Assembly (NCBI RefSeq): GCF_017114985.1
Contig: NZ_JABXKP010000038.1
Location: 12,357 to 76,356 of the forward strand
Source of the DNA: Nostoc sp. JL33
GTDB taxonomy: Bacteria; Cyanobacteriota; Cyanobacteriia; Cyanobacteriales; Nostocaceae
Reading direction: 5' to 3'
DNA length: 64,000 nt
Made by a program: the position numbers and the translations under genes. This document shows, piece by piece, positions 12,798 through 42,933 of the stretch (its first letter is position 1; each line of letters begins with the position of its first letter). The notes under the pieces were generated by a model. That model had not been told where the DNA came from and made no database searches. It was given only the letters and a program-made list of their open reading frames with translations.

Positions 12798-12935
12798 TTT
12801 CTATTACCATAACTTTTTGCAGAAGCTGCTTACTAGACTCTTTGGTGAGTATGTAAATAGCCATGAGATTAATTAGTTCGTTCCCAGAGTTATGATTGTT
12901 AAGTTGTTAATTAACAACTATCTTCATTTCAACAC

Positions 12936-18633: not shown

Positions 18634-18940
18634 TTTTAAAAGCTGGCAATCTTATCCAATTGTTATAGACACTAAAACACTCCAAGAAAGCGGAATTTAC
18701 AACGGAGTTTGGATTTGTCCATTCACCAAAAGACAAAGGATGAATTTGGAAGCAGCAAAAACTTTATTCCAGCCAAAAAACTACACCCAATCAACTGGAA
18801 TTTCAAATTTTTGATTTTTGATACCTAAGTCTTTTATTAACTCTATCCAATAATAATCTTCGAGAGTGTTTTTGTGTCTATATTTTTACATTTTGTAATG
18901 GTCATTACTTTCTCTAACCAATCCCAAACAATATCGAGAG

Positions 18941-20008: not shown

Positions 20009-20033
20009 TTCTTATTACCTTTAGGAGTGAAAA

Positions 20034-21002: not shown

Positions 21003-21089
21003 AACCTCTGCGCTTTCCTCAGCTACCTAAAGCGTTTAAAACTCACCCCTCAGTTCCCCACGATTTTACCTAAAGCTGTATTGCAACAC

Positions 21090-22346: not shown

Positions 22347-22404
22347 ATTCTGACTTGATAAAAGTTTCCACAAACAAATTATTTAATTCTCAATCTCCAA
22401 AGGT

Positions 22405-23781: not shown

Positions 23782-23952
23782 TTCCTCTTTACCTCGTGTC
23801 AGGTAAAGCTTACAGAATAGGCTGCTGCCTCACACAGAAAGTTGCATTTCAAACAAGAGGCAGTAGCCCGAATTTTAGGGTTCCCGAACTGGGACGGGGA
23901 ACAAAATTAGTCTAGGAAAGAGTATACCTCATACAACTAGGACTTCAAACTC

Positions 23953-25149
23953 ATGGGATTAGTCAAAAATTTGTCAATCGGTATTCTCGGTACTGGATTC
24001 ATGGTGTTGGCAGCAGCAGCCCAAGCCAAGGCTGTAACATTAACTTACGACAGAAGTATTGGCGAAGCTGGCTTCGGACCTGGGCAGCTTTTTGTTCCCC
24101 AAGGCATAACGGTAGATAGCCAAGGGAATACCCTCATATCTAACGGACGCGGTGTTAACCCGGATGGTACTCCTAACTACAACCTCGGTAACAAAATTGA
24201 AAAATTTAGTCCAAGCGGTCAGTATATTGGAGCAATTGGCTCCGGCGGCAAAGGACCCGGACAGTTTGACGAGCCAACAACTGTAGACTTTAATCCCGTA
24301 ACAGGGGATTTGTATGCAGGTGATGTTTATAACAACCGGATCAATCAATTCGATCCTCAGGGTAAATTTATTAGATCCTTTGCAAATGGAGAATTTACCG
24401 GTCTCATACCAGGTAGGTTTTTCTTTGGACCATCTGGTGTGACATTTGACAAAGCTGGCAACGTTTACGCAGGTGATTTTAACGGCGAAAGAATCCTTAA
24501 ATTCACACCTGACGGAAAGCAAATTGGTGTCATTGGTGGCACCAATGGCACTGCACTTGGAGAATTCCAAGGTGTAGCCGGTACAAGAATTTCCCCAGTT
24601 AGTGGAAATATCTTTGTAGCTGACCAGTATAACAACCGCGTTCAAGTACTCGATCCAAATGGTAAACCTCTGTACACATTTGGTTCAGCAGGTAGCGGAC
24701 CTGGACAGCTTCTTCAGCCAATTGGCATCGAAGTGGACGACCAAGAGAATGTTTATGTAGCTGATTCTATCAACAGCCGCGTTCAGGTATTTGATAAAAA
24801 CGGTAAATTCTTGACTTCCTACGGTCAACCAGCCCTAGATGCATCAGGCAAGCCAGTCCCGCCTCCAGGATTAACTGACGGTCCCTTTGGCAATCCCCTC
24901 GACCTCACACCAGGCAAATTTAACTGGACGGGTGGCACAACCCTCAAAGATGACAAGCTGTATGTGGGCGATTTCTTCCAAGGTCGCGTCCAAGTGTTAA
25001 ACGTAGAGGGTAGAAAGCAAGTGCCAGAACCGAGTTCAACATTGGGTTTAGCATTGCTTGGATTTGGGGCTGCTACCGTCATATTGCGGAAACGTGGGCA
25101 ACAAAAGTCAGTCTTGAGTTTAGAGAAGGAACTGCAAAATAATTACTAA
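23953..25149 (+). CDS. scyF: ScyF, NHL-repeat protein, PEP-CTERM
   Basis: NHL repeats (PGQF.EP, YVAD..N.RVQVFD), signal peptide, VPEP tail. Confidence 0.92.
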   Translation: MGLVKNLSIGILGTGFMVLAAAAQAKAVTLTYDRSIGEAGFGPGQLFVPQGITVDSQGNTLISNGRGVNPDGTPNYNLGNKIEKFSPSGQYIGAIGSGGKGPGQFDEPTTVDFNPVTGDLYAGDVYNNRINQFDPQGKFIRSFANGEFTGLIPGRFFFGPSGVTFDKAGNVYAGDFNGERILKFTPDGKQIGVIGGTNGTALGEFQGVAGTRISPVSGNIFVADQYNNRVQVLDPNGKPLYTFGSAGSGPGQLLQPIGIEVDDQENVYVADSINSRVQVFDKNGKFLTSYGQPALDASGKPVPPPGLTDGPFGNPLDLTPGKFNWTGGTTLKDDKLYVGDFFQGRVQVLNVEGRKQVPEPSSTLGLALLGFGAATVILRKRGQQKSVLSLEKELQNNY

Positions 25150-25358
25150 TTCGTAATTCGTAATTCGTAATTAGAAAGTTTCGTAGGGTGCATTAGCCAA
25201 GAGCATAACACACCATCTCAATAATTTCGGTGCCGTACTCTCGGCGGAAACACACCCTACGAAAATTTCAGGTTATTAAATCCGGAACAAGGGAGATAAA
25301 AACTGGATAACACAACAAAGCCAACATTATCAAGGTGCTTTTAGGACATTAAGAGTTC

Positions 25359-26648
25359 ATGCAAATTCTGATTTATTCATACAACTATCATCCAGAACCA
25401 ATTGGTATTGCACCTTTGATGACTGAACTAGCAGAAGGGCTGGTGAAGCGAGGGCATCAAGTGCGGGTAATCACAGGTATGCCTAACTATCCTCAGCGCC
25501 AGATTTACGATCGCTATCGGGGTAAGTTATACGTTACTGAACATAAAAATGGTGTCAAAATTCAGCGTAGTTACCTGCGGATTAAGTCTAAACCTAACCT
25601 TATAGATCGGCTACTGCTAGAGTTGAGCTTTGTTTTTACGAGTTTGCCACAAGCTCTCAAGGGACAGCGACCTGATGTGATTCTCTTAACAGTGCCGCCG
25701 TTACTAGTTTGCTTACCTGCAACCTTAATAGCTTGGCTATACAACTGTCCAGTAGTGCTAAATGTGCAAGATATTCTCCCGGAAGCTGCCGTGCGTGTTG
25801 GGCTAATTAAAAATAAGTTGATGATTTCAACTCTGGAAGCTTTAGAAAAATTTGCCTACCGAACTGCACATACCATTAGCGTGATTGCGGATGGCTTTGT
25901 AGATAATTTAAAAAATAAAGGTGTACCTGCTAATAAGATTGCCTGTATTCCAAATTGGGTGAATCTAAATTTTATTCGCCCTTTACCAAAGGAGAATAAC
26001 TCTTGGAGAACTTCCCATCAACTCGATGGTAAATTTGTAGTGCTTTATTCAGGTAATATTGCCCTGACGCAAGGTTTGGAGACAGTAATCGAAGCAGCAG
26101 CTCGCTTGCGCGATCTAAAAGAAATTGTCTTTGTCGTCGCCGGTGAATCCCAAGCTCTCGAAAGGTTGCAAAAACATTGTCTCGCTTGTGGAGCAGATAA
26201 TGTTTTACTGCTACCATTGCAACCGCGAGAAAAACTACCGCAAATGTTGGCAGCCGCAGATGTCGGGTTGATTGTGCAAAAGTGGAATGTGATTTCCTTC
26301 AATATGCCTTCTAAAATACCACTGTTGTTAGCTAGTGGTCGCCCAATTGTCGGTTCAGTTCCCGGCGCTGGTACTGCTGCCAAAGCTATCAAAGAAAGTG
26401 GCGGCGGTATTATCGTTGAGCCAGAGTCAGCAGATGCTTTGGCCGCTGCTGTATGGGATTTATATAATCAACCGGAATTAGCAGCAAAATTAGGGCGTGA
26501 AGGAAGAAAGTTTGCTGTAGAAAACTATTCCTTTGAGCAAGCGCTAGATCGGTATGAAGAGTTATTTTCTGATGTGATTGCCAAAGAAGCAACAACTTTG
26601 GATATTTTGCCGGAAATGAGTTCTAAAGAATCACTTGTTGATATTTGA
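25359..26648 (+). CDS. GT4 (WcaI-like) glycosyltransferase of the scy cluster
   Basis: NYHPEPIGIA, YSGNI, PSKI..LASG motifs. Confidence 0.9.
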   Translation: MQILIYSYNYHPEPIGIAPLMTELAEGLVKRGHQVRVITGMPNYPQRQIYDRYRGKLYVTEHKNGVKIQRSYLRIKSKPNLIDRLLLELSFVFTSLPQALKGQRPDVILLTVPPLLVCLPATLIAWLYNCPVVLNVQDILPEAAVRVGLIKNKLMISTLEALEKFAYRTAHTISVIADGFVDNLKNKGVPANKIACIPNWVNLNFIRPLPKENNSWRTSHQLDGKFVVLYSGNIALTQGLETVIEAAARLRDLKEIVFVVAGESQALERLQKHCLACGADNVLLLPLQPREKLPQMLAAADVGLIVQKWNVISFNMPSKIPLLLASGRPIVGSVPGAGTAAKAIKESGGGIIVEPESADALAAAVWDLYNQPELAAKLGREGRKFAVENYSFEQALDRYEELFSDVIAKEATTLDILPEMSSKESLVDI

Positions 26649-26666
26649 AAATTGGGGAAAGGAAAA

Positions 26667-27749
26667 ATGCCTTTGAAATCCTCTTATTCAGATCAGCTTA
26701 AAAAAACTGACCAAAGCTTGATCGCCTTACTGAGCGATCGCATATCATTATTAGCAGCATCAGAACCTCCTTCTTTAGATGAACAACTGGCTGATGTGGC
26801 TCCCCTACTTGCTCAAGCTGGTATTCCTGAGTCTGTTTGGGTAGGTGTGCTGAATAGTTGTCATGCGATGATTCCTAAATATGTAGCCAATCATGTCAGT
26901 CCCCGACAAATTACGATCATCGGTGGACGCGGCAGGATGGGAAGATTATTCAAAGAGCAACTTTCGATAGTTGGTCACAATGTTAGCGTTCTCGAACACG
27001 AGGATTGGGAGTATGCAGATAAACTGTTGAATCAGGCAGAATTAGTATTAGTAAGTGTTCCCATTGAATATACAGTTGATGTTATCAAGCGTGCAGCTAA
27101 ATACCTTGCCCCAAATACAGCTTTGTGTGACATCACGAGTATTAAAACACAACCAACTCAAGCAATGCTCGAACACCATTCAGGCCCAGTCATGGGCTTA
27201 CACCCAATGTTTGGGCCAAATATCAAATCGTTTTTAGGACAAAAAGTGGTAGTGTGTCCAGGTCGGAACGATGATTCATTTCAATGGTTATTAGACTTTA
27301 TTAAAACTAAAGGTGGAGAGTTAATTGTTTGCACGCCGGAAGAACATGATAAAATAATGGTGGTTGTTCAAGCAACACAGCATTTCTGTAGATTTAGTCT
27401 TGGCGTTTTCTTGACACAAGCAAGAATTGACATAGAGCAGAGCTTAACAATGTCAACTCATAACTACCGTCAAGAAGTTGACATCGTTAAACGTTTGTTT
27501 TCTCAAGACCCCCGTTTATGTGTGGATATTATGCTAGCTACACAGGAACGATGTGATGCAATTGGCTTTTTAACTAATACTTACAGCCGTTTAGCGAAAC
27601 TGGTGGCGAGGAAAGATAGAGACGCATTAATTAAAGAATTTGAAAATACTCAAAGCTTTTTTGAAGAGAAAATCAACACTTTTCTACAGCCTTTAAACAC
27701 AACTTCTAAAACGGTTCAACGAGATTTTAAGCCAATACGGTTCAGTTAA
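26667..27749 (+). CDS. tyrA: Prephenate dehydrogenase with an N-terminal chorismate-mutase-like domain
   Basis: IIGGRGRMG, DITSIK, GLHPMFGP, HD...VVQ motifs; ATG at 26667. Confidence 0.9.
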   Translation: MPLKSSYSDQLKKTDQSLIALLSDRISLLAASEPPSLDEQLADVAPLLAQAGIPESVWVGVLNSCHAMIPKYVANHVSPRQITIIGGRGRMGRLFKEQLSIVGHNVSVLEHEDWEYADKLLNQAELVLVSVPIEYTVDVIKRAAKYLAPNTALCDITSIKTQPTQAMLEHHSGPVMGLHPMFGPNIKSFLGQKVVVCPGRNDDSFQWLLDFIKTKGGELIVCTPEEHDKIMVVVQATQHFCRFSLGVFLTQARIDIEQSLTMSTHNYRQEVDIVKRLFSQDPRLCVDIMLATQERCDAIGFLTNTYSRLAKLVARKDRDALIKEFENTQSFFEEKINTFLQPLNTTSKTVQRDFKPIRFS

Positions 27750-27763
27750 GGTTAAAAGTCTTT

Positions 27764-27955
27764 CAGGACTTATACCATTTCTTTGTAAAGCTGCGCCAAA
27801 CCCTTTTAACTTCTTTCTTTCTTTCTTTCTTTCTTTCTTCGCGTCCTTCGCGTCCTTCTCCCAAGGGGAGACGCTAACGCGAACGCGGTTCGTTTTTCTT
27901 TCTTGTACTTAAATATGGTTTAGCGCATCTTCATACAGAATTGGTATAAGTCCTG
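27764..27955. mobile_element. MITE-like element, 14-bp TIR CAGGACTTATACCA, containing a TTTC microsatellite
   Basis: TIRs at 27764-27777 and 27942-27955. Confidence 0.7.
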
Positions 27956-28093
27956 TCTTTATCAAAGTCATTTTTTTTTAACGAACCACAGAGGCGCAGA
28001 GAACACAGAGAGAGGAAAAAAATGCTTAACTGAACTGTATTGGATTTTAGGCCACAGATGCACACAAATATTAGCATTTAAAGAACAAAAACT

Positions 28094-28741
28094 ATGCTGA
28101 TAGACATCTTTCACGATACCGTATGCCCCTGGTGCAGAATTGGGAAAAAGCATCTATTTGATGCACTGACACAATGGCAAGAACAAGAAGTACATATTCG
28201 CTGGCATCCCTTTCTTCTAGATAATACTATTCCTGCTGAGGGATACGAATTTCGTAGCTTTATGCAAAAAAGAAAAGGTATCGAAAGAGAACAACTGCAA
28301 CATCTGTTTGATAGTACGCGACGCGCAGGTGAGGCGGCTGGAGTCAAGCTAGATTTTGACAAAATCGGTTTGGCTGTCAATACTAAGCTTTCTCACGAGT
28401 TGATTACACTTGCACCCGCAAAGGTAAAAAATGATGTCGTAGAAGCTATTTATAAAGCTTACTTTGAAGACGGTTTGAACATCGCAGATATTAACGTTCT
28501 TGTTGCCATCGGTACAGCATACCAAATGGATGCTAGGGAATTACGCCTGTTATTAAATGATCGTGCTGTGGCTGATGCAGTTGTGGCTGAATCCACATTC
28601 GCTCGGTTAAATGGCATCAACAGCGTGCCGTTCTTCATGATCAATAACAATGTCAAGATAGATGGTTCTTACTCGGTAGAAATCTTCCTTCAAGCTTTGA
28701 ATCGTGCAGCACTTATAGATATATCAGCAAAAATATGGTAA
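28094..28741 (+). CDS. dsbA: DsbA/FrnE-family thioredoxin-fold protein
   Basis: DTVCPWC and VPFF motifs; no signal peptide; stop overlaps the next start. Confidence 0.88.
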   Translation: MLIDIFHDTVCPWCRIGKKHLFDALTQWQEQEVHIRWHPFLLDNTIPAEGYEFRSFMQKRKGIEREQLQHLFDSTRRAGEAAGVKLDFDKIGLAVNTKLSHELITLAPAKVKNDVVEAIYKAYFEDGLNIADINVLVAIGTAYQMDARELRLLLNDRAVADAVVAESTFARLNGINSVPFFMINNNVKIDGSYSVEIFLQALNRAALIDISAKIW

Positions 28742-29943
28742 TTGACATTAAGCAAAAAAGCAGATTCAGTCTGCAACCAATTCATCAACGTGTTTCGGTT
28801 ACTTTCAACTACGAGGTTTACTTCACTCAAAATTTATTTGAGTTGAAAAACCCCACCTTAGCCCAAGTGATTGCAGCAGATGGGGAGACAAAGCCGAAGA
28901 AAGTAGTAGCGGTAGTAGACGCAGGAATATTGGAGTATCAACCTGGATTGGTTAAGCAATTAGTAGCGTATACCAAGTTTTATGCAGAAGTACTAGCGAT
29001 CGCAGCCGAACCGATGATAATTTCGGGAGGAGAAGCTGCCAAAAACGATCGCACTTTAGTAGATCAAATCCAGCAACAGATTGAAGCCGCCGGATTATGT
29101 CGCCATTCCTACATATTAGCGATCGGCGGTGGGGCGGTATTGGATTTGGTAGGATATGCTGCTGCAACTGCTCACCGAGGAATTCGCCTTATCCGCATTC
29201 CGACGACTGTGTTAGCACAAAATGATTCCGGGGTTGGAGTAAAAAACGGCATCAACGCCTTTGGTAAAAAGAACTTTCTTGGCACATTTGCGCCACCTTA
29301 TGCAGTTATAAATGACTCTGCCTTTTTGACAACTTTAGACGATCGCGATTGGCGTTCTGGGATCGCAGAAGCAATCAAAGTGGCGCTGATTAAGGATGCT
29401 AACTTTTTTTATTTTATCCATTTCCACAGCGCAGCCCTTGTGCAGCGAGACATGGACACTATGCAAGAAGTGATCTATCGTTGCGCTCAGTTGCACTTAG
29501 AACACATTACCAACAGTGGCGATGCTTTTGAAATGGGTTCGTCTCGTCCCCTGGATTTTGGACATTGGGCGGCTCATAAACTGGAGCATTTGACAGGTTA
29601 TCGCTTGCGTCATGGCGAAGCAGTTGCGATCGGTATCGCTTTGGATAGCACCTATTCCTATTTAGTAGGACTGCTGGATTATTCAGAATGGCAACGGATA
29701 TTAAATACTTTATCAGCGTTGGGTTTCACGTTGTATGTGCCTGAACTAGCTGAGAAGTTATCACAATTAGAACATCCTGATTGTCTGTTCGGAGGTTTAA
29801 CTGAGTTCCGCGAACACTTGGGTGGAGAATTAACTCTAATGCTGTTACAACGCATTGGAAAAGGAATTGAAGTTCATCAGGTGGATTTGTTTTTGTATAG
29901 GCAAGCAATATCGCTGTTGCGGGAATTTAGGGTGGAATTTTAA
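28735..29943 (+). CDS. aroB: 3-dehydroquinate synthase-family sugar-phosphate cyclase (scy-cluster AroB)
   Basis: GGGAVLD, IPTT.LAQ.D, GVKN, AEAIK, HGEAV; atypical PLDFGHWAAH. Confidence 0.85.
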   Translation: MVIDIKQKSRFSLQPIHQRVSVTFNYEVYFTQNLFELKNPTLAQVIAADGETKPKKVVAVVDAGILEYQPGLVKQLVAYTKFYAEVLAIAAEPMIISGGEAAKNDRTLVDQIQQQIEAAGLCRHSYILAIGGGAVLDLVGYAAATAHRGIRLIRIPTTVLAQNDSGVGVKNGINAFGKKNFLGTFAPPYAVINDSAFLTTLDDRDWRSGIAEAIKVALIKDANFFYFIHFHSAALVQRDMDTMQEVIYRCAQLHLEHITNSGDAFEMGSSRPLDFGHWAAHKLEHLTGYRLRHGEAVAIGIALDSTYSYLVGLLDYSEWQRILNTLSALGFTLYVPELAEKLSQLEHPDCLFGGLTEFREHLGGELTLMLLQRIGKGIEVHQVDLFLYRQAISLLREFRVEF

Positions 29944-30088
29944 ACGCTCCAGGTAGCTGAGGGAAGCGCAGAGGAACGCTGAGGTTTAATGAGAATTTAT
30001 GAGATAATTTACTACTTTTGAGGGAGGCGGAGATTTTTAAATAGGCTATCAGGAAATGTACTAGGAAAGCAGTATAAAAAGCGAATAA

Positions 30089-30120
30089 ATTGACACCTAA
30101 TCGAAAAATTGTTCAGCGTA
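30089..30120 (+). promoter_or_regulatory. Fourth copy of the scyA-type motif, upstream of trpE
   Basis: AAAGCGAATAA-ATTGACA-CCTA-ATCGAAAAATTGTTCAGCGTA; 4-nt spacer. Confidence 0.6.
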
Positions 30121-30325
30121 TTATCTGCTTGATATCTAGTACTCTTAAATAAGAAGCAAAAAGTTTTTCATTACATCTTTTAAAAAAAAACACACAAGTT
30201 TGGATAATTTCAATTAGATTGACATCGAATTATCTTGAGTCGTTTTTATTTTGAAGATAGTTATCAATAATAATTAATGGCTTTTGGCTAATGACTGGCT
30301 AATAAATATTCCAGAGAGATTACCT

Positions 30326-32533
30326 ATGATTTTTGATTCCCGTTCCTACAAAACCCTTGGTGGTGTAAACGTTTCTCGCTCCATCACAGAAGTGAAGATG
30401 GACACCGCCCTGGAAGAAATACTTTTCTATCTAAATTCTCAGCGTGGAGGTTTGCTAAGAAGCAGCTACGAATATCCAGGGAGATACAAAAGATGGGCGA
30501 TCGGATTTGTAAATCCACCGCTAGAATTGAGTACACAGGAAAATGCTTTCACATTGATAGCGTTGAATGAACGCGGACAAGTACTTTTACCATTACTCTT
30601 AGAGCGGTTATCTAAATCAAAACAACTTGAAAAAGTTACCCAAGAGAATAACCATATTGTAGGGTTTGTTAAACCTACAAAAAACCTATTTGCTGAAGAA
30701 GAACGTAGTAAACAACCTTCAGCATTTACTATTGTCCGCGAAATCTTATATACTTTTTCTAGTCAAGAAGACGAGCATTTAGGATTGTATGGTGCGTTTG
30801 GTTATGACTTAGTTTTCCAATTTGAACCAATTACCCAACGCTTAGAACGTCCTACAGATCAGCGAGATTTAGTGCTTTATCTGCCTGATGAATTGATAGT
30901 TGTTGACTACTATCAACAACGTGCATTTCGTCTAAAATATGAATTTGAAACAGCGCACGGCAATACAAAGAATCTTCCTCGAACAGGTGAGTCTATAGAT
31001 TATCGCGGAAAACATCTTCTACAGAATCAAACTGCTGACCATAAAGTAGGCGAGTATGCGAAAAAAGTTGAGGTTGCACTCGATTATTTCCGCCGAGGCG
31101 ATTTATTTGAAGTTGTTCCTAGTCAAAACTTTTTTGAGGGCTTTGAAGACCAACCTAGCAAATTGTTTGAAACCTTAAAAGAAATCAACCCTAGTCCCTA
31201 TGGATTTATTTTTAATTTAGGTGGAGAATATCTAATTGGTGCATCTCCAGAAATGTTTGTGCGGGTTGAAGGTAGGCGGGTAGAAACCTGTCCCATTAGT
31301 GGGACTATTAGCCGGGGACAAGATGCTCTTGACGATGCGGTGCAAATTCGTCAGTTACTCAACTCACACAAAGATGAAGCTGAGTTGACCATGTGTACTG
31401 ATGTCGATCGCAATGACAAATCCCGGATTTGCGAACCTGGTTCAGTACGAGTCATTGGTCGTCGCCAAATAGAATTATACAGCCACTTAATTCATACAGT
31501 AGATCATGTTGAAGGTACACTGCGATCGCAATTTGATGCTTTAGATGCCTTTCTCTCGCATACATGGGCAGTTACAGTCACCGGCGCACCCAAAAGAGCC
31601 GCAATAGATTTTATTGAACAGCATGAAAAGAGCGCTCGACGTTGGTATGGTGGAGCAGTTGGTTATTTAAATTTCAATGGCAATTTAAATACTGGATTAA
31701 TTCTGCGGACAATTCGATTAAAAGACTGCATCGCCGAAGTGCGAGTTGGTGCTACTGTCCTTTATGACTCCATACCACAAGCAGAAGAACAAGAAACAAT
31801 TACCAAAGCTGCTGCTTTATTTGAGACGATTCGCCGTGTTAAGCAAACTAGTCAGATTGATCAGTCCAGTTCGATAAAATTAACTAAAATCTTACCTTGT
31901 GCAGAAGCTGGCAAACGCGTCTTACTAATAGACTATGAAGACTCATTTGTTCATACCCTAGCCAATTACATTCGCCAAACTGGTGCAAGTGTCACCACAC
32001 TACGTCATGGTTTTTCAGAATCGCTATTCGATACAGAACGCCCTGACTTAGTTGTTTTATCTCCTGGCCCTGGTAGACCAAGTGATTTTGGTGTTCCCCA
32101 GACAGTCGGCGCCCTTCTTCATCGCCAAATTCCTATTTTCGGAGTTTGTCTGGGACTGCAAGGCATTGTTGAAGCTTTTGATGGAGAATTGGGAGTTCTC
32201 AACTATCCCCAACATGGTAAATCCTCACGGATTTTCGTCACCGATTCTAATTCTGTTACCTTCAAAAACTTAGCACAATCTTTTATGGTGGGTAGATATC
32301 ACTCATTGTTTGCCCTACCGCAACGTTTGCCAAAAGAACTGAAGGTGACAGCGATTTCTGATGACGACGTAATTATGGGTATTGAACATCAGACACTTCC
32401 CATCGCCGCCGTTCAGTTTCATCCAGAATCAATCATGACTTTAGCGGGAGAAGTCGGTTTGGAAATTATTAAAAATGTGGTGTCTGCATATACGCAAACC
32501 AAAGAGTCATTAGGCATTGGTCATAGGGCATGA
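30326..32533 (+). CDS. trpE: Fused anthranilate synthase TrpE-TrpG
   Basis: GDLFEVV, NPSPY, TCPISGT, ELTMCTDVDRND, then a GATase domain (DSFV, SPGPG, GVCLG, QFHPES); ATG at 30326. Confidence 0.95.
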   Translation: MIFDSRSYKTLGGVNVSRSITEVKMDTALEEILFYLNSQRGGLLRSSYEYPGRYKRWAIGFVNPPLELSTQENAFTLIALNERGQVLLPLLLERLSKSKQLEKVTQENNHIVGFVKPTKNLFAEEERSKQPSAFTIVREILYTFSSQEDEHLGLYGAFGYDLVFQFEPITQRLERPTDQRDLVLYLPDELIVVDYYQQRAFRLKYEFETAHGNTKNLPRTGESIDYRGKHLLQNQTADHKVGEYAKKVEVALDYFRRGDLFEVVPSQNFFEGFEDQPSKLFETLKEINPSPYGFIFNLGGEYLIGASPEMFVRVEGRRVETCPISGTISRGQDALDDAVQIRQLLNSHKDEAELTMCTDVDRNDKSRICEPGSVRVIGRRQIELYSHLIHTVDHVEGTLRSQFDALDAFLSHTWAVTVTGAPKRAAIDFIEQHEKSARRWYGGAVGYLNFNGNLNTGLILRTIRLKDCIAEVRVGATVLYDSIPQAEEQETITKAAALFETIRRVKQTSQIDQSSSIKLTKILPCAEAGKRVLLIDYEDSFVHTLANYIRQTGASVTTLRHGFSESLFDTERPDLVVLSPGPGRPSDFGVPQTVGALLHRQIPIFGVCLGLQGIVEAFDGELGVLNYPQHGKSSRIFVTDSNSVTFKNLAQSFMVGRYHSLFALPQRLPKELKVTAISDDDVIMGIEHQTLPIAAVQFHPESIMTLAGEVGLEIIKNVVSAYTQTKESLGIGHRA

Positions 32534-32663
32534 TATCATGTCCGCCAAATTAAGAACCCCACCCCCAACCCCTCCCCGCAGGCGGGGAGGGGAGCTAAAG
32601 CGCAGCTTTGGCGGGGTGGGGTTCCGGGCCGAGTATTATGCTTAATTGCCCGGACATCGTATA
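32533..32663. mobile_element. MITE-like element, imperfect ~22-bp TIR around a GC-rich hairpin
   Basis: ATATCATGTCCGCCAAATTAAG ... CTTAATTGCCCGGACATCGTAT. Confidence 0.65.
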
Positions 32664-32701
32664 AGTTATTCTCCTTGTCTCTCCACTCCCTCTAGCAGTT
32701 T

Positions 32702-33526
32702 ATGATTAACCAAGTTGTCACTTCCCGCCATATTCTCGAAGAAATTGTGTTGCATAAAAAGAAAGAAGTCGCACAAATGCAGCAAGAATTGCCTTTAGCC
32801 TCCTTGCAAAAACAGTTAAATGCAGCCCCGAATGTGCGAAATTTCTTGAATGCTTTGCAAGAAAATCCCAACCAACCTAGCTTAATTGCCGAGGTAAAAA
32901 AAGCATCACCTAGTCGTGGGATTATCCGCGCAGATTTTGACCCAATAGCTGTTGCTCAAGCTTATGAACGAGGTGGTGCAGCTTGTTTATCAGTCCTGAC
33001 TGACCAAAAGTTTTTTCAGGGCAGTTTTGATAATCTGCGGGCTGTGCGATTACAAGTAGCATTACCCCTACTGTGTAAGGAGTTCATCATTAACCGCTAT
33101 CAAATTTATTTAGCACGGACAGCAGGTGCAGATGCAGTCTTGTTGATTGCTGCGATTTTATCAGATCAAGAACTCCAAGATTTTTTGCGACTGATTCACG
33201 ATTTGGGCATGAATGCACTGGTAGAAGTTCATACCTTGGCTGAACTAGATCGAGTGCTAAAGCTTGACGACTTACATTTAGTAGGAATCAACAATCGCAA
33301 TTTAGAAGATTTTACCCTTGATTTAGGAACAACACAGCAACTTTTAGCACAGCGTCAACAACAATTACAAAGTTTAGATATCACCGTCGTCAGTGAGTCT
33401 GGACTGTTTACACCTGCTGATTTATCTCTTGTAGCTGAAGCTGGTGCGCGTGCAGTTTTGATCGGAGAGTCTTTAGTTAAACAAAGCGATGTAGAACAAG
33501 CTGTGCGTAGTCTTTTAAAGCTCTGA
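32702..33526 (+). CDS. trpC: Indole-3-glycerol phosphate synthase
   Basis: [35 protein letters not shown]. Confidence 0.96.
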
Positions 33527-33527
33527 T

Positions 33528-33583
33528 ACTCATTAACGGAGCTAAAAGACTCGTTAACGGAGCTAAAAGACTCGTTAACGGAG
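33528..33583. repeat. 21-bp tandem repeat (~2.7 copies)
   Basis: ACTCGTTAACGGAGCTAAAAG unit, no spacers. Confidence 0.8.
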
Positions 33584-33612
33584 TTCCAAATAAAAAAATA
33601 TCCAATTATTTA

Positions 33613-33673
33613 TTGTGGGGTGGGCATCTTGCCCGCCCAATAACCAAAGGCGGGCAAGATGCCCACCCCACAA
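33613..33673. repeat. REP-like perfect 25-bp stem-loop between trpC and trpA
   Basis: TTGTGGGGTGGGCATCTTGCCCGCC-N11-GGCGGGCAAGATGCCCACCCCACAA. Confidence 0.85.
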
Positions 33674-33746
33674 GAGTTAGGTTTAATTGGGTTATGCAAT
33701 TTAGATGTTTTTCAGCTTATTAACCAATTATTAACTATTTTTCGGC

Positions 33747-34580
33747 ATGACTTCTATCTCCACTTCCTTTCAAACTTTACGCGATCGCCAACAGTGTGCT
33801 TTAATTCCTTTTATCACAGCAGGCGATCCTAACTTAGAAACCACTGCCGAAGCTTTACGCATCTTAGATCGCAACGGCGCTGACTTCATCGAGTTGGGCG
33901 TTCCCTACTCCGATCCTCTAGCAGATGGGCCTGTGATTCAAGCAGCAGCAACCCGCGCTTTGCAAAAAGGCACTAAATTAGAGCAAGTGCTAGAGATGTT
34001 ACAAACGGTGAGTCCGAGCTTAAAAGCGCCGATAATTCTATTTACTTACTACAATCCCATTTTGCACCGGGGTATTAAACCATTTTTGGGAGAAATTGCT
34101 GCTGCTGGGGTGCGAGGGCTGGTAGTGCCAGACTTACCCTTAGAAGAGGCAGGAGAATTAATCCAAACCGCCGCATCTTTCGGAATTGAGGTAATTTTAC
34201 TCGTAGCTCCCACCAGTTCTAAAGATAGGATTGAAGCGATCGCACGTCAATCTCAGGGTTTTATCTACCTTGTTAGTGTGACTGGAGTTACAGGTATCCG
34301 CTCTCAACTCCAAAACCGCGTAAAACATTTAATTACAGATTTGCGAAGCGTCACCGATAAACCCATTGGCGTTGGTTTTGGCATCTCAGATTCAGAACAA
34401 GCACATCAGGTAAAAGAATGGGGTGCAGATGCAGTGATTGTTGGTAGTGCCTTTGTTAAACGATTAGCTGAAAGTAGCCCAACAGAAGGACTGCAAGCAG
34501 TAGAAAAACTCTGTCAAGAACTTAAAACAGCGATTACAGAAACTCGGCGCGAAAGTCCATCTCTTCAAGAAGTGAGATAA
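33747..34580 (+). CDS. trpA: Tryptophan synthase alpha
   Basis: [30 protein letters not shown]. Confidence 0.97.
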
Positions 34581-34739
34581 ATTCACCCCCCAACTTAGGG
34601 AGTTCTGAATTCTGACTCCTAAATTCTGACTCCTAAATTCTGACTTCTTCATTTCTCTCTCTTCCTCCTTTCTCCGTGCCCTCTGCGCCTCTGTGGTTCG
34701 TTTTCTTGGATAATTTATTTCTTGCAAATTCCTTAGACA

Positions 34740-35993
34740 ATGAAACTCCTGCTGAAATCCGTCAAAATATTAATTTATAGCGTACTTCTAGTTAGCGCCT
34801 GCGCCCTTACAGTCTTTGCTCATAATCCCGTTGACCACGGACAATACAAATACCATTGGGATTACAATTTTCTAGGACAACAGGCTCACCTAGCTGTAAG
34901 AAAGAACGTAACTGACCTGACACCAGCAGAAAAAACAGCCTTTGTCAAGGCTATAAAAACCTTAAAAACGACAATTCCCGTAGGTAGCAAGCTTAGTATT
35001 TACGACCAATTCGTTGCCATACATCTAGGGGCAACACGCTTGATTCATAATCATAAAGGGCATTCCGATAGTTCCGTCCAAGAACTTGCTCATGAAAATG
35101 CCGCCTTTTTCCCTTGGCATCGAGAATATATCCGCAGATTTGAACAAGCTCTGCAAGCAGTAGACCCAACTGTTAGTCTCCCATACTGGGATTGGACTGA
35201 CCCTAAAGCACTTGATGTGATTTTTAACGATGACTTTCTTGGCTCTAACGGCCAAGGAGTAACCATCAAAATTCCAAATCAGGGAAATTTTACAGGCGGC
35301 CCTGTGCCTGGGGCTTTTGCTGCTGCAAATGGCTGGGTTATGAATCCAGTATTAAACATTGACCCAGATACCAACACATCATTAGGTACATCACTTGTCC
35401 GGTTTCTACGACTACCTCCTGCCAGTGATTACCCTGTGCCCAAAAAAGATATTGAGCGTGCCCTTGCTCTTAATAACTATTCTCTATTTCGCCCTGCTTT
35501 GGAAGGATTTATCTCTGTAGATGAGCAGGGTAAAGTTACCCCAGGAGGATTCATACACAACTACATTCATGGTTTAGTCGGTGGGGTACAAATAGACGCG
35601 AGTACGACACCCATAAAGTTTAAGCCTTTAGGTACTATGAGCAATATCCCAAGTTCGCCCTATGACCCAGTATTTTGGTTGCATCATGCGAACGCAGACC
35701 GCCTCTGGGCCCAATGGCAAGAAAACGGTCATAAAGGTAGCGATTTTTATCCTCCCGATGGTCATAGTCAGCCTTATGGACACAATCTTAAAGACCTAAT
35801 GTGGCCTTGGGATGGCGGGATGTCTACCCCTAAAGCTACGGGCTTAGGAGATTTACTATCCCTATTACCAAATTTTGACTCTGACGATTTGGTGCGCCCT
35901 CTAGACGTTTTGAATCACAGGAAACTAGGTTATACCTACGAAACCTCTGAAAAGAAAACGCGAAGAGAATTTTATCTGTGGAATAAGTTCTAA
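34740..35993 (+). CDS. Tyrosinase with N-terminal signal peptide (scy-cluster TyrP)
   Basis: CuA (IH...AH...FFPWHR) and CuB (HNYIH...DPVFWLHH) motifs. Confidence 0.92.
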   Translation: MKLLLKSVKILIYSVLLVSACALTVFAHNPVDHGQYKYHWDYNFLGQQAHLAVRKNVTDLTPAEKTAFVKAIKTLKTTIPVGSKLSIYDQFVAIHLGATRLIHNHKGHSDSSVQELAHENAAFFPWHREYIRRFEQALQAVDPTVSLPYWDWTDPKALDVIFNDDFLGSNGQGVTIKIPNQGNFTGGPVPGAFAAANGWVMNPVLNIDPDTNTSLGTSLVRFLRLPPASDYPVPKKDIERALALNNYSLFRPALEGFISVDEQGKVTPGGFIHNYIHGLVGGVQIDASTTPIKFKPLGTMSNIPSSPYDPVFWLHHANADRLWAQWQENGHKGSDFYPPDGHSQPYGHNLKDLMWPWDGGMSTPKATGLGDLLSLLPNFDSDDLVRPLDVLNHRKLGYTYETSEKKTRREFYLWNKF

Positions 35994-36043
35994 AAACTTA
36001 GAACAAAAGTAAAAAATACTTGAACGTAAAAGGATTTTAACCA

Positions 36044-37285
36044 ATGGTAAGTATACAAGACATCAACACTACGATTTCGGCTGCAACTGTCCAACCAGAT
36101 TCTTTGGGCAGGTTTGGAAAATTCGGCGGTAAATACGTTCCCGAAACCTTAATGCCTGCATTAAGTGAGTTGGAAGCGGCGTTTCATCAATATCGCAACG
36201 AGCCAAGTTTCCAAGCGGAACTGCAAAACTTACTGCGTGACTATGTGGGACGACCCAGCCCATTATATTTTGCTGAACGCCTGACAACAAACTACGCTAG
36301 ACCAGATGGCACGGGAGCGCAAATCTACTTAAAGCGTGAGGATTTAAATCATACAGGCGCTCACAAAATCAATAATGCTTTAGCTCAGGTGCTGCTAGCT
36401 AAACGCATGGGTAAGCAACGGGTTATTGCAGAGACAGGCGCAGGCCAACACGGCGTAGCGACTGCAACTGTATGTGCGCGGTTTGGTTTGAAATGTGTGA
36501 TTTACATGGGCGTTCATGATATGGAACGCCAAGCCCTCAACGTGTTTCGCATGAAGTTAATGGGGGCAGAAGTTCGCCCAGTGTCAGCAGGTACGGGAAC
36601 TCTCAAGGATGCAACTTCGGAAGCAATTCGGGATTGGGTGACGAATGTGGAAACAACTCATTACATCCTCGGTTCCGTTGCCGGGCCTCATCCCTACCCG
36701 ATGATTGTGCGTGATTTCCACACTGTAATTGGTGTAGAAACTCGCGCTCAGTCTCAGGAGAAATGGGGAGGATTACCAGATATTTTACTGGCTTGCGTGG
36801 GTGGAGGTTCCAATGCGATCGGCTTGTTCTATGAGTTTGTGGATGAACCTTCAGTTCGCCTAATCGGAGTAGAGGCGGCGGGTGAAGGTGTAAATACAGA
36901 AAAGCACGCTGCTACCTTGACAAAAGGAAAAATAGGTGTATTGCACGGCGCGATGAGCTATTTATTGCAAGATGATGATGGTCAAGTCATCGAAGCCCAT
37001 TCAATTAGTGCCGGACTGGATTATCCCGGCGTTGGCCCTGAGCATAGTTATTTAAAGGATCTTGGTCGCGCCGAATATTACAGTGTTACCGATAAACAGG
37101 CGTTAGAAGCGTTTCAGAGGCTTTCGCAACTAGAAGGAATTATTCCCGCCTTAGAAACTGCTCATGCGATCGCATATCTCGAAACCCTTTGTCCTCAGTT
37201 AGAAGGCAACCCCCGCATCGTGATCAATTGTTCCGGCAGAGGTGACAAAGATGTGCAAACCGTCGCCAAAGTCCTTATTCCTTAA
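36044..37285 (+). CDS. trpB: Tryptophan synthase beta
   Basis: [38 protein letters not shown]. Confidence 0.98.
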
Positions 37286-37322
37286 TCTTCTCTTCTTGTC
37301 GTTTGCTAATGACAAGTGACAA

Positions 37323-38429
37323 ATGACCAATATGATAGCTGTAACTAAAACTCCACCCGATAACATCCCCGTTACTCCTGAGTTCTACAACTGGCCAGTT
37401 TTATTGCAACAGTTGCTGAATCGGCAATCGTTGACGGTTTCCCAAGCTGCGGATCTGATGCAGGGTTGGCTCACAGATGCCATTCCCCATGTATTATCAG
37501 GAGCGATTTTAGCCGCAATTCAAGCTAAAGGCGTATCTGCACAAGAATTAGTAGGGATGGCTAGCGTCTTACAATCCCAATCCCCACCCCCCGTACAAAC
37601 GCGATTAATCGCGTCTCCCCTAATTGACACTTGCGGAACTGGTGGAGATGGTGCTTCAACTTTTAATATTTCTACTGCTGTCGCCTTTGTTGCCGCCGCC
37701 GCCGGGGTAAAAGTTGCCAAACATGGCAATCGTTCCGCATCTAGCAAGGCTGGTTCTGCTGACGTGTTGGAAGCTTTGGGCATAAATCTCAACGCCACCC
37801 CGGAGAAAGTACAAGCCGCAGTGGGCGAGGTCGGAATCACCTTTTTGTTTGCTCCAGGCTGGCATCCTGCACTTAAGGCGATCGCTACTTTGCGAAAAAC
37901 TTTGAAAGTGCGGACTGTTTTTAATTTGCTCGGCCCGCTAGTAAATCCCATGCGACCGACAGGGCAAATTATTGGTGTGAATGACCCGCTTTTACTAGAG
38001 GAGATTGTTCAAGCTTTATCCCAATTGGGATGTCAGCAAGCGATCGCACTCCACGGACGGGAACGTTTAGATGAGGCGGGTTTGGCAGATGTCACTGACT
38101 TGGCTGTACTCCAAGATAAAAAAGTGCGTTCTCTAACGCTCAATCCTCAAGAACTTGGTTTGAGTTTTGCACCGACTGCGGCGTTGCACGGTGGAGATGT
38201 CGAAGAAAATGCCGAAATCTTGAAGGCAGTTTTACAAGGTAAAGGCACTCAAGCGCAGCAAGATGTAGTTGCTTTAAATACAGCCCTCGCACTCCAAGTT
38301 GGTGAAGCCATTGATGGAGAAACTGATGTTTTAGCCGGTTGTGTTAAAGGTATTGCCCTTGCTAAGGAAATTCTGCAAAGCGGCGCTGCTTGGACGAAGT
38401 TAGAACAACTTGCTGAATTTTTGCGCTAA
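37323..38429 (+). CDS. trpD: Anthranilate phosphoribosyltransferase
   Basis: [32 protein letters not shown]. Confidence 0.97.
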
Positions 38430-38708
38430 TTGCTATTAGCCACTAAGTTATAGCGATTCTCGTTTGGATGGACATGCTGTAGGGTCACACATTTGTCATT
38501 GGCATCAACTAAGCCTTTAAATACTCTCGTTTCCAGGTTCCACCTGGAAATGCACCTCATTGCGGCTCTGCCGCTAATCAAATTAAGGAGGCAGAGCCTC
38601 CCTATGGCATTCCCAGCCTGAGGCTAGGAACGAGGCAATCTCTCAAAGCGGCTTTTAGACTAGGTTTCAGTTTAGGTTAATTACACCCAAAAACAAAAGG
38701 AAAAACAG

Positions 38709-39770
38709 ATGATTATCATACTTAAGAGCGGTACACCTGTTGAGGAAATTACTCGGATTAGCCAAGAACTGAGTGACACTTGGGGAGTCACGGTAGAAAA
38801 AAGCATTGGCACTCATAAAGTTGTGCTGGGGCTAATTGGTGATACCACTAGCATCGATAAATTACAGGTTCAGGAGTTCAGCCCTTGGATTGAGCAAGTA
38901 TTACGAGTGCAACAACCTTTCAAGCGGGTTAGCCGAGAATTCCGACATGGAGAAGCCAGCGAGGTTGTTGTACCCACGCCTAACGGTGATGTCTATTTCG
39001 GCGAACGTCACCCGATCGTGGTGGTAGCCGGGCCTTGTTCCGTTGAAAATGAAGCGATGATTGTGGAGACAGCAAAGCGGGTGAAGGCAGCAGGAGCACA
39101 GTTTCTGCGTGGCGGAGCTTACAAACCTCGCACTTCACCTTATGCCTTTCAAGGTTATGGCGAAAGCGCTTTAGATTTATTAGCCGCAGCGCGGGAAGCT
39201 ACTGGTTTGGGCATCATCACAGAACTGATGGATGCTGCGGATTTATCAGCAGTGGCGAGAGTCGCTGACGTGATCCAAATCGGAGCGCGAAATATGCATA
39301 ACTTTTCGCTGCTCAAAAAGGTAGGCGCTCAAGATAAACCTGTGCTGCTGAAGCGGGGGATGTCTGCAACAATTGATGAGTGGCTGATGGCGGCAGAATA
39401 TATTTTGGCATCAGGAAATCCGAATGTGATTCTTTGTGAGCGGGGAATTAGAACCTTTGATGGTAAATATGCCCGCAATACTTTAGATTTATCGGTGCTT
39501 CCGGTGTTGCGATCGCTTACCCATTTACCGATTATGATTGATCCTAGTCACGGTACGGGTAGGTCTGAATATGTTCCATCAATGGCAATGGCTGCGATCG
39601 CAGCTGGTACAGATGCCTTGATGATTGAAGTTCACCCCAATCCAGCTAAGGCTTTATCCGATGGCCCCCAATCTCTCACTCCTGATAAATTTGACCGTTT
39701 AGTTGAAGAAATGTCAGTTCTGGGCAAAGTAGTCGATCGCTGGTCTACACCTGCATTTGCCTGCATTTGA
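38709..39770 (+). CDS. aroG: DAHP synthase (type I-beta with N-terminal regulatory domain)
   Basis: AGPCSVE, GGAYKPRTSPY, QIGARN, LKRG, CERGIR, DPSHG. Confidence 0.95.
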   Translation: MIIILKSGTPVEEITRISQELSDTWGVTVEKSIGTHKVVLGLIGDTTSIDKLQVQEFSPWIEQVLRVQQPFKRVSREFRHGEASEVVVPTPNGDVYFGERHPIVVVAGPCSVENEAMIVETAKRVKAAGAQFLRGGAYKPRTSPYAFQGYGESALDLLAAAREATGLGIITELMDAADLSAVARVADVIQIGARNMHNFSLLKKVGAQDKPVLLKRGMSATIDEWLMAAEYILASGNPNVILCERGIRTFDGKYARNTLDLSVLPVLRSLTHLPIMIDPSHGTGRSEYVPSMAMAAIAAGTDALMIEVHPNPAKALSDGPQSLTPDKFDRLVEEMSVLGKVVDRWSTPAFACI

Positions 39771-40280: not shown

Positions 40281-40355
40281 ATGAATTTTATTACTTTGGA
40301 TGTTTTTGGATTAAATAATCTGAATTTTCATACCTTTTCAAACACCCTCTAAAGA

Positions 40356-40503
40356 TTTGACAAATTTATCAAAAGATTATTCATTGCAATATAATTCTTA
40401 ATTAAAATATAACCTTATTACACACTATTGAGTCAAATGTTCTATCTTCTCCTTTAAAAATATCTAATATTTTGATAGATTTATCAAAACATTTTTCATT
40501 GTC
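40356..40503 (+). promoter_or_regulatory. Fifth and sixth copies of the scyA-type 33-bp motif
   Basis: TTTGACA-AATTT-ATCAAAAGATTATTCATTGCA (40356-40388); TTTGATA-GATTT-ATCAAAACATTTTTCATTGTC (40471-40503). Confidence 0.7.
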
Positions 40504-40717
40504 CTTAGAAGTGAAATAGCATAAATTAGAGATGTAAGTAGCATTAACTAACAATTGATTATCTTCACTTGATAAGGTAATCAATTAAACTTAGAGCTAC
40601 TAACTAGTTGTGCTAACAAAAAAACAACATAAAAGTCATAATCAAGACTTAATTTGTCTGTTTTATGTTGCTATGCTAGCAAGATTTTTATTCTAAGAAC
40701 TAGGAGGATTAGTCCTG

Positions 40718-41401
40718 ATGGCAGATTTAAATAATAGTGGTACCGGGAACTCTTCTAGTGCCGCCGACAAGTTGAGAGATTCACCCTTCGGTCGCTTAAA
40801 TGAAGTTCTGAGTGATAAAGAACTCTCCAATATATTCAGTGGTACCGGTAATAAAGAAGGTAGCGGTAATCCATTTGGTGCTAGTGGCACTGGCACTGGT
40901 AGTGGCACTGGCACTGGTAGTGGTAGTAAGCCTGATTTAGCCTATGGTGGTAATCCTTTCGCCGGTGACAACTTTTGGAATATCTTTGCAGGCGGTGTAA
41001 ATCCATCCGCAGGCGGTGCTAACCAGGGTACTGGCAAAGACCCTTTGACTGGTGCTGGCAGCCAGGGCAGTAGTATTAGCACAACTAAAATACCAGACGG
41101 ATTGGGTTTGAGAGTTACTATTGATAACCTAGTTAACTCCAGGCTTAAAGAGGCACAGGGTGGCGGCGGCATCCCCTCATCTGGAAGTGGCGGCATCCCC
41201 TCATTTGGAAGTGGCGGCATCCCCTCATTTGGAAGTGGCGGCACCCCGTCATCTGGAAGTGGCGGTATCCCGTCATTTGGTGGTGACGGCATCACATCAT
41301 TTGGAAGCGGGGGCATCCCATCATCTGGAAGTGGCGGCATCCCCTCATTTGGTGGTGGCAACATCCCCTCATTTGGTGGTGGCGGCATCCCGTCCACTTA
41401 G
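40718..41401 (+). CDS. Gly/Ser-rich repeat protein, unknown function
   Basis: GGAGG RBS; ten 8-aa GGIPS(F/S)G(S/G) repeats (24-bp unit, about 41165-41398). Confidence 0.75.
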   Translation: MADLNNSGTGNSSSAADKLRDSPFGRLNEVLSDKELSNIFSGTGNKEGSGNPFGASGTGTGSGTGTGSGSKPDLAYGGNPFAGDNFWNIFAGGVNPSAGGANQGTGKDPLTGAGSQGSSISTTKIPDGLGLRVTIDNLVNSRLKEAQGGGGIPSSGSGGIPSFGSGGIPSFGSGGTPSSGSGGIPSFGGDGITSFGSGGIPSSGSGGIPSFGGGNIPSFGGGGIPST

Positions 41402-41646: not shown

Positions 41647-42933
41647 TTGGTACTAATGGAAGCATCTGCTGTCAATCCGATTAATGGTGAGGTTAACACT
41701 TTTAGTGCCACTGGCGATCGCAACCTGTATAGCGGTAGTTCCTTTGCTACCAATGGCAGTTTATATCCTGAAGGCAGCTTGTTGACAGGTGGTAGCAATC
41801 TCTTTGCAGGTAACAATCCCATTCCAGGTGGCGGTATCAACGCCTTTGCTGGCGATGGTGGCAGTAAGCTTCAGCAATTAATCTTTGATCGCTTGAAGTT
41901 AGTTCTGGGTGAAAATTTTTTCCAGCGCACTGACAACACATTAGCAGGTGGAAATAACCCATTTCTAAACGGTGGCAATCTCATTGCAGGTGGCAGTACC
42001 AACCCCTTTGCTGGCAACAGTAATCCTATAGCAGGTGCTGGAAGTCTGCTTCAACAATCGCCTTTCGATCCGTTGAGAGAAGTCCTTGGTAATAATATAC
42101 CTTTTGGTAACAGTGGCAATACGTCTAATGCTGCTATTAGTAGCCCACCCTTTAATCAGGGCAAGGCACCCGTTGGTAATAGCAACAGGAACTTTGGTAG
42201 TAACAACGCAACCATTGGTAATTTTAACTCGGATTATGGCAGCAACAGCGCAACCATTGGCAATGGGAACTGGAACTTTAATCAGGACAACGCAACTATT
42301 GGTAATGGCAACTGGCTATTTGCAAGTGATAACACAACCCTTGGTAACGGTAATTGGTATTGGGACAAGGGAAATAATAATGCAACATTAGGTAATGGTA
42401 ATTGGAACTTCAGGAGTAACAACGCAACCATTGGAAATGGCAATTGGGACTTCGGTAAGAACAACACAATTATTGGTAATGGTAACTGGGTTTTTACAAA
42501 TGGAAATACAATCATTGGTAATGCCAATTGGCTAGCGGATAGTGACAACATAACCATTGGAAACATCAATAACCCCAGCATTTTAGGGTTATTTCCGCAA
42601 GGAATCAAGACTAATGTTAACAATCTGATTGACTCCCTTATAGGTAAAATAGGTCAAGATTTTGTTGGGTTAACAGGAGATTTTGATCTATCAAGTAGCC
42701 AGACATTTAACCGACTCATTTCTTCTAAAAGTGCTGGTATTAATGACACTAATTATCTTAAGGATATTGGGCAACTTTTGGCATCACTCAGCAAAATTCA
42801 AGGGAATGTGATTAATTATCAGCCTGTGCAAAACCCTCAGCCTGTTCCAGAACCTGCTTCTTCAGTGCCTCTGGTAGTAATGGGACTTGTATGTTTGCTG
42901 TTATCAGTCTTCAAAAAACAACAACGCTGTTAA
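41647..42933 (+). CDS. PEP-CTERM protein with nine 14-aa NATIGNGNW repeats
   Basis: AGGAG RBS before TTG 41647 / ATG 41656; C-terminal VPEP+TM+KKQQR. Confidence 0.85.
   Translation: MVLMEASAVNPINGEVNTFSATGDRNLYSGSSFATNGSLYPEGSLLTGGSNLFAGNNPIPGGGINAFAGDGGSKLQQLIFDRLKLVLGENFFQRTDNTLAGGNNPFLNGGNLIAGGSTNPFAGNSNPIAGAGSLLQQSPFDPLREVLGNNIPFGNSGNTSNAAISSPPFNQGKAPVGNSNRNFGSNNATIGNFNSDYGSNSATIGNGNWNFNQDNATIGNGNWLFASDNTTLGNGNWYWDKGNNNATLGNGNWNFRSNNATIGNGNWDFGKNNTIIGNGNWVFTNGNTIIGNANWLADSDNITIGNINNPSILGLFPQGIKTNVNNLIDSLIGKIGQDFVGLTGDFDLSSSQTFNRLISSKSAGINDTNYLKDIGQLLASLSKIQGNVINYQPVQNPQPVPEPASSVPLVVMGLVCLLLSVFKKQQRC

Follow-up and report, generated by a model that had tools for sequence, protein, structure and literature searches.

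Two adjacent genes that follow the scytonemin cluster of Nostoc sp. JL33 are conserved, so far unnoticed members of the scytonemin gene set. They lie in the window analysed here, a stretch of 64,000 nucleotides (nt) of contig NZ_JABXKP010000038.1 (positions 12,357 to 76,356 of the forward strand; assembly GCF_017114985.1), and all coordinates below are those of the window. The gene under study, referred to as the target (41647..42933, + strand), is an open reading frame (ORF) that encodes a GNGNW-repeat protein with a PEP-CTERM-like tail. The partner gene (40718..41401, + strand) lies directly upstream and encodes a Gly/Ser-rich protein of 227 amino acids (aa). The link of this pair to scytonemin has strong genomic support from an operator-like motif, the phylogenetic profile and a position directly after scyF in other families. 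As to function, we give about even credence to the reading that the target is an accessory of the scytonemin system, which makes an ultraviolet-A (UV-A) sunscreen: a co-regulated, exosortase-sorted sheath scaffold that would aid the deposition or retention of the pigment.

Three copies of the operator-like motif are found upstream of scyA (16060, 16205 and 16468; 16060..16505, + strand). A weight matrix was built solely from these three sites, and both strands of the 7.1-Mb genome were scanned with it. Outside the training sites, the only strong site in the genome was found at 40353..40390 on the + strand (AGATTTGACAAATTTATCAAAAGATTATTCATTGCAAT), about 330 nt upstream of the partner gene, with a score of 35.5 bits; the next best site scored 19.0 bits. 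A second, weaker copy (15.2 bits) is located at 40468..40505 on the same strand. The scyA matrix also matched the + strand upstream of the pair in 70 of the 80 related loci, whose promoters are orthologous, usually as two copies about 115 nt apart, and where the partner is missing the match precedes the target itself. Of the ten loci that lack a match, nine have less than 1.1 kb of upstream sequence, and only about four weak matches were found elsewhere in the 1.43 Mb covered. Matches outside these loci were obtained upstream of scyA in three loci of two other families (L087, L088 and L095) and upstream of a stand-alone target homologue in a further family (L092).

Two further features of the region were noted. 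A site upstream of trpE (30086-30123) scored below 12 bits on the scyA-only matrix and reached 20.3 bits only after it had been added to the training sites. A strong copy of the motif (37.9 bits) does stand before trpE in L087 and L095, on the opposite strand. After aroG, a GC-rich hairpin followed by a T-run (CCCCGCCC...GAGCGGGGTTTTT; 40066-40107), with a loop too long for the terminator scan, precedes a palindromic repeat-like element at 40160-40260. This arrangement fits a separation of the pair from the aro/trp genes and a promoter of its own for the pair. A literature search found no published operator, no scyG and no relevant gene downstream of scyF.

The phylogenetic profile links the target with ScyC, which was counted when NF035924 matched at E <= 1e-30; of these matches, all 23 from the order and 99 of the 100 from the genus are above the curated cut-off. 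Among 301 genomes of the order, 19 encode both proteins, none encodes the target only, 4 encode ScyC only and 278 encode neither (Fisher p 1.6e-26). The corresponding numbers for 121 genomes of the genus are 72, 2, 28 and 19 (Fisher p 1.2e-7), and one of the two target-only genomes is only 86% complete. In one Nostoc genome (G350; locus L098, C1:3783000-3792000; C1:49380-50313), scyC is in two pieces and the target is frameshifted, which could reflect either joint decay or indel errors of a long-read assembly.

Gene order points in the same direction. Five loci of three other families (L086, L087, L088, L089 and L095) show the order scyA-B-C-D-E-F, partner, target, in which the pair forms the seventh and eighth genes directly after scyF. 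In the window, the scytonemin cluster (scyA-F, a glycosyltransferase gene, tyrA, dsbA, aroB, trpE, trpC, trpA, tyrP, trpB, trpD and aroG) spans 16744..39770 on the + strand, and a divergent two-component system consisting of a PAS histidine kinase and an AraC-type response regulator (11889..12797) is located at 11889..14915 on the - strand. The view that the target is simply the last gene of this cluster was rejected, as neighbourhood alone is insufficient: aroG lies within 10 kb upstream in 7 of the 80 related loci, and the motif and the phylogenetic profile were therefore needed. Nostoc punctiforme PCC 73102, which we took to be genome G320, has the scy cluster and no target homologue at the threshold of E <= 1e-10, and the whole partner/target pair is missing from it. 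Because this strain produces scytonemin without the target, the target is not required for synthesis and would be an enhancer or accessory rather than a biosynthetic enzyme. The absence of the pair from this model strain is also the reason why the pair was missed by the field. In the literature searched, ScyD, ScyE and ScyF are the only PEP-CTERM proteins named for the scytonemin locus (PMC12188702, PMC4870267).

The partner and the target constitute a fixed two-gene module that is fused in some lineages. The partner is directly upstream of the target in about 70 of the 80 related loci, and NPFAG motifs and an SPF(G/D)xLxEVL module are common to both proteins. Nostoc flagelliforme and a Peltigera cyanobiont Nostoc are among the carriers of the pair. 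Fusions into one polypeptide were found in L088 and in Chroococcidiopsis (L090/P0077); the N-terminus of P0077 matches the partner N-terminus with an E value of 4e-26, and the remainder of P0077 is target-like. In Synechocystis sp. PCC 7509 (L089), partner and target both carry PEP-CTERM tails and both lack a signal peptide, and the adjoining ScyE and ScyF have clear signal peptides. The JL33 partner contains about ten GGIPSFGS octapeptides, encoded by a 24-nt DNA repeat, and has neither a signal peptide nor a transmembrane (TM) segment; scans of this protein against Pfam and NCBIfam gave no match. Two other interpretations of the pair were rejected. The partner segment LSDKELSNIFSG could be taken for a double-glycine leader; the same module is internal in the target (aa 135-147) and occurs twice in P0077, and because of this internal recurrence it is a domain module. 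A single frameshifted gene was rejected for this genome, in which partner and target are separate, conserved ORFs with a 245-nt spacer.

The target ORF can start at a TTG codon at 41647, giving 428 aa, or at an ATG codon at 41656 (MEASAVNPING), giving 425 aa. The methionine at position 4 of the longer form (MEASA) is nearly invariant in the alignment of 75 sequences. More than 216 homologues were found, all annotated either as 'hypothetical' or as 'PEP-CTERM sorting domain-containing', and the family is small, with 60 matches at E <= 1e-3 among 1.84 billion representative proteins. The full-length target gave no Pfam match (E <= 0.1) and no NCBIfam match. The lack of a Pfam or NCBIfam family and the low-complexity composition could suggest that the ORF is not a real gene or is meaningless, a reading to which we give next to no credence. 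The open frame is kept in more than 200 proteins with invariant columns, the protein motif is kept while the underlying DNA repeat has diverged, the fold is predicted confidently, and synteny and the promoter motif are conserved. That reading is already refuted by this conservation.

From the N- to the C-terminus, the target comprises a disordered Gly/Asn-rich region, nine repeats, a helical domain and the PEP-CTERM-like tail. The N-terminal region (aa 4-175; 41656..42171, + strand) contains NPFAG-type motifs and two SPF(G/D)xLxEVL / QQLIFDRLKLVL helix modules, and no signal peptide. The helical domain (aa 310-385, DVNNLIDSLIGKIGQDF...QTFNRLI; 42574..42801, + strand) is kept across the family and gave no structural match. 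The same genome encodes a paralogue of 318 aa (C67:6803-7456; L002 ORF 1324..2280) that has GNGNW repeats and NPFAG motifs and lacks both the PEP-CTERM tail and the helical domain. Most Nostoc genomes have a second and weaker match of a similar kind, and a wider GNGNW-repeat superfamily therefore exists.

The nine tandem repeats (aa 185-307; 42199..42567, + strand) are in register and consist of eight units of 14 aa and one of 16 aa (DNTTLGNGNWYWDKGN), with the consensus [N/D]N[A/T]T[I/L]GNGNWxF[G/D][S/N]. An earlier note on this DNA had described such a period, with aligned Asn, Gly and Trp. The period and the aligned Asn and Gly hold, and the Trp at unit position 10 is limited to seven of the nine units (units 2-8), with unit 1 (NFNSDY) and unit 9 (NINNPS) lacking it. 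All eight Trp residues of the target fall within the repeats. Tandem Repeats Finder detected a 42-nt period with 7.7 copies at 42162-42489. Because the copies match at only 66%, the repeat did not arise by a recent DNA duplication but is old and diverged, and its protein motif is maintained by selection. The 75 homologues contain 709 units in total, 6-12 per protein, in which the most conserved unit positions are G6 (100%), N7 (100%), N9 (97%), N2 (89%), G8 (87%), W10 (77%) and F12 (59%). N-x-T sequons (NAT, NTT, NNT and NIT) occur in seven of the nine units, within 42205-42552, at aa 187, 215, 229, 245, 259, 272 and 301; a GT4 glycosyltransferase whose role is unassigned is encoded in the scy cluster at 25359..26648.

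The structure was predicted as a monomer with AlphaFold2, for the full-length target and then for aa 176-388 with 102 sequences. The full-length model had a predicted local distance difference test (pLDDT) score of 57, lowered by the disordered N-terminus, and its Foldseek E values were no better than 0.012. In this model, the N-terminal 175 residues had pLDDT values of 25-40 apart from one amphipathic helix (70-87), and were followed by a beta-solenoid, the helical domain and a TM helix. The aa 176-388 model reached a pLDDT of 88.1 and a predicted template-modelling (TM) score of 0.86, with values of 97-98 in the repeats and two short strands per unit. The repeats are thus modelled with high confidence as a parallel, left-handed beta-roll that has 14 residues in each turn and is of the YadA-head / ryegrass ice-binding protein (IBP) type. 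By-eye alignment to the YadA register NSVAIGxxSxAxxx would place W10 and F12 outward, and packing volume likewise argues against W, F, I and A all being inside one 14-residue turn; both considerations are inference only.

A Foldseek search against the PDB with the aa 176-388 model placed YadA-like heads on top (E 5e-4 to 7e-3, probability 0.98-1.0), including AtaA (E 5e-4), CbpF (E 1e-3 and 2e-3) and BoaA, and BpaC aligned with a root-mean-square deviation of 3.1 Å over 137 columns. The ice-binding beta-roll of Lolium perenne (3ULT) followed with an E value of 0.022, a probability of 0.99, 24% identity and a TM score of 0.53 on the target. A search of the PDB with the sequence profile gave a weak match to AtaA alone (E 0.13). 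The earlier note had thus named the right analogies, as the adhesin heads and the ice-binding proteins that it cited are the best structural neighbours, and the beta-solenoid that it had proposed is what the model shows. Of the functions that it suggested for a Trp ladder (stacking of aromatic pigment, binding of polysaccharide or binding of ice), the one that concerns the pigment gains strong genomic support, well beyond what the note had to go on.

Two other functions were considered. The target might bind ice or act as an antifreeze by way of a flat face of N-x-T or aromatic residues, and the match to 3ULT, the regular N-x-T ladders in seven of nine units and the many carriers that are lichen or soil Nostoc would be in line with this. 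However, the HMM (hidden Markov model) of PF21300, the ice-binding beta-roll family, gave no match to the target and misses the 14-mers, the carriers include desert and marine scytonemin producers, and the genes are linked to the UV-A sunscreen genes and to no cold-related genes, so the genomic context gives no support. Ice binding is thus very improbable. In two long homologues, P0082 (aa 199-285) and P0113 (aa 157-238), PF21300 does match a GENLVAG / GENPFAS heptad region in the N-terminal part, again not the 14-mers; an expanded form of the 'disordered' NPFAG region may therefore fold into a second beta-roll. The other function is that of a general sheath or adhesion beta-roll adhesin, sorted by an exosortase and controlled by the same UV-A regulator, which would alter or stiffen the polysaccharide envelope or cell-cell contacts under UV stress and would not touch scytonemin directly. 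The closest folds are indeed adhesin heads, N. punctiforme uses PEP-CTERM proteins to adhere to polysaccharide (PMC12188702), and strains without the target can do without it in pigment synthesis. However, the near-perfect restriction to scyC carriers and the place in the scyA-F operon in three families are tighter than such an adhesin predicts, and we regard it as possible but rather unlikely.

The C-terminal tail comprises VPEP, a TM helix and KKQQRC, up to the stop codon (42841..42933, + strand). When the tail VPEPASSVPLVVMGLVCLLLSVFKKQQRC was scanned alone, it scored 16.5 bits with TIGR02595 (cut-off 16) and 16.7 bits with PF07589 (cut-off 20.7). The full-length target matched neither model, and the homologues P0034 and P0071, which are nearer to the consensus, pass. 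From its sequence, the tail is thus a marginal but plausible PEP-CTERM. In the alignment of 75 sequences, V400, P401 and E402 are nearly invariant to invariant, and a recognisable PEP and TM tail was found in 73 of the 92 homologous ORFs from the fetched loci. The genome also encodes cyanoexosortase B (496 bits, cut-off 300) and cyanoexosortase A (220 bits, cut-off 150; contig C84). Cyanoexosortase B is essential for scytonemin production, and the export route of scytonemin to the sheath has been called 'undefined' (PMC12188702). ScyD, ScyE and ScyF (21081..25149) all have PEP-CTERM tails (TIGR02595, 13-21 bits). For ScyF there is also a match to the equivalog 'scytonemin biosynthesis PEP-CTERM protein ScyF'.

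Signal peptides were called by a hydropathy heuristic, the maximum of the Kyte-Doolittle mean over stretches of 10 residues within the N-terminal 50 aa. This maximum was 1.37 for the target and 2.1-2.3 for ScyD/E/F of the window; the 75 family members had a median of 0.74 and a maximum of 1.98. By the same heuristic, none of the 92 homologous ORFs in the fetched loci reached a value of 2.0. Both observations of the earlier note on the protein termini are therefore borne out: a VPEP-TM-basic tail is present, with its marginal TIGR02595 score, and a hydrophobic N-terminal signal is lacking in the target, the 75 homologues and the 92 ORFs alike.

The missing signal could mean that the target stays on the cytoplasmic side, tail-anchored or soluble, where it could organise the hand-over of precursors between ScyABC and Ebo at the membrane. 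Neither the 92 homologues nor the partner has an N-terminal hydrophobic segment, and some homologues lack any TM tail, as this location would allow. However, by the positive-inside rule, a basic cluster after a TM helix puts the C-terminus on the cytoplasmic side, with the body outside, and KKQQRC follows the helix of the target. Furthermore, exosortase recognition accounts for the conserved VPEP, whereas a simple anchor does not, and ScyD/E/F of the same regulon use the same tail. A cytoplasmic location is thus improbable.

In the scaffold reading, the AraC-type response regulator of the cluster would switch on the pair together with scyA-F under UV-A. Cyanoexosortase B (CrtB) would process the target like ScyD/E/F, and the body of the protein would lie outside the cytoplasmic membrane, held by the PEP-CTERM helix in accordance with the positive-inside rule. 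There, in the periplasm or the sheath, the target may act as a structural scaffold or adhesive. The rigid beta-roll, with its putative ladders of Asn/Thr and Trp/Phe, could bind scytonemin or the polysaccharide matrix together with the Gly-rich aromatic repeats of the partner, and such binding would help to deposit or retain scytonemin. A bolder version sees in the pair the extracellular half of the scytonemin system that has been missing: a rigid beta-roll with aromatic and Asn/Thr ladders and a Gly-rich aromatic elastomer would form a matrix that captures the lipophilic pigment in the sheath, and would be exported by a route that needs no signal peptide and is coupled to cyanoexosortase B. 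We consider this version unlikely; if true, it would reveal a previously undescribed way of exporting PEP-CTERM proteins.

Several points weigh against the scaffold reading. The induction by UV-A is inferred from the motif alone, and the motif matches in the related Nostoc loci come from orthologous promoters and are not independent, independence being provided by the other families only. The target is absent from 28 of the 100 scyC-positive Nostoc genomes, including that of the scytonemin producer PCC 73102. The PEP-CTERM score of the target is marginal, and the tail is wholly absent in some family members (P0077, P0082, P0098 and P0118). Target and partner lack a signal peptide throughout the family, which is atypical for exosortase substrates and leaves their export putative. 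The contribution of the target could also be minor, or unrelated to the pigment itself.

The passage of scytonemin out of the periplasm and its retention in the sheath still await explanation. For this question, the pair offers concrete genes to knock out or to add, and it is relevant to heterologous scytonemin production. In addition, the target is a natural test case for PEP-CTERM proteins without a signal peptide.

Among known proteins of the scytonemin system, ScyD, ScyE and ScyF share with the target the type of C-terminal sorting tail (putative in the target), the regulon or operon, and a genome with cyanoexosortase B (PMC12188702). However, they are NHL beta-propellers with hydrophobic signal-type N-termini, whereas the target combines a beta-roll with a disordered N-terminus, lacks a signal peptide and, unlike ScyD/E/F, is absent from the model strain PCC 73102. 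For N. punctiforme, SignalP 4.1 predicted a signal peptide for ScyD and ScyE, not for ScyF (PMC4870267). NpR1259 (Npun_R1259), described in the literature as the 'last gene' of the scytonemin cluster in N. punctiforme (PMC2726228), has in common with the target a position just downstream of aroG. The identity of the two was rejected: the gene after aroG in PCC 73102 (L096 8905..9849, - strand; G320 C1) encodes a Gly-rich protein of 314 aa with two TM segments, which fits the published description and is unrelated to the target.

With the Lolium perenne IBP (3ULT; PF21300, LbR_Ice_bind), the target shares a monomer-sized left-handed beta-roll of 14-15 residues per turn with Asn/Gly-rich repeats; it differs in that the HMM of that family misses its 14-mers and in that its context is one of sunscreen rather than cold-related genes. 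The YadA-like heads (YadA 1P9H, AtaA 3WP8, BoaA 3S6L, BpaC 7O23, CbpF 9GH4 and UspA1 3NTN) have in common with the target repeats of about 14 residues, an xxIG core and the left-handed parallel beta-roll. A trimeric autotransporter (type Vc) was nevertheless rejected, since the Pfam models of the head repeat, the stalk and the YadA anchor were unmatched and the C-terminus is a single TM helix. In contrast to the YadA-like proteins, the target matches no Pfam head repeat and lacks a coiled-coil stalk, a C-terminal beta-barrel anchor and a signal peptide. It has the GNGNW signature with its Trp ladder and, instead of the type Vc parts, the helical domain and the PEP-CTERM-like tail, which would make it a new form of the YadA-head beta-roll, with a Trp ladder and outside type V secretion.

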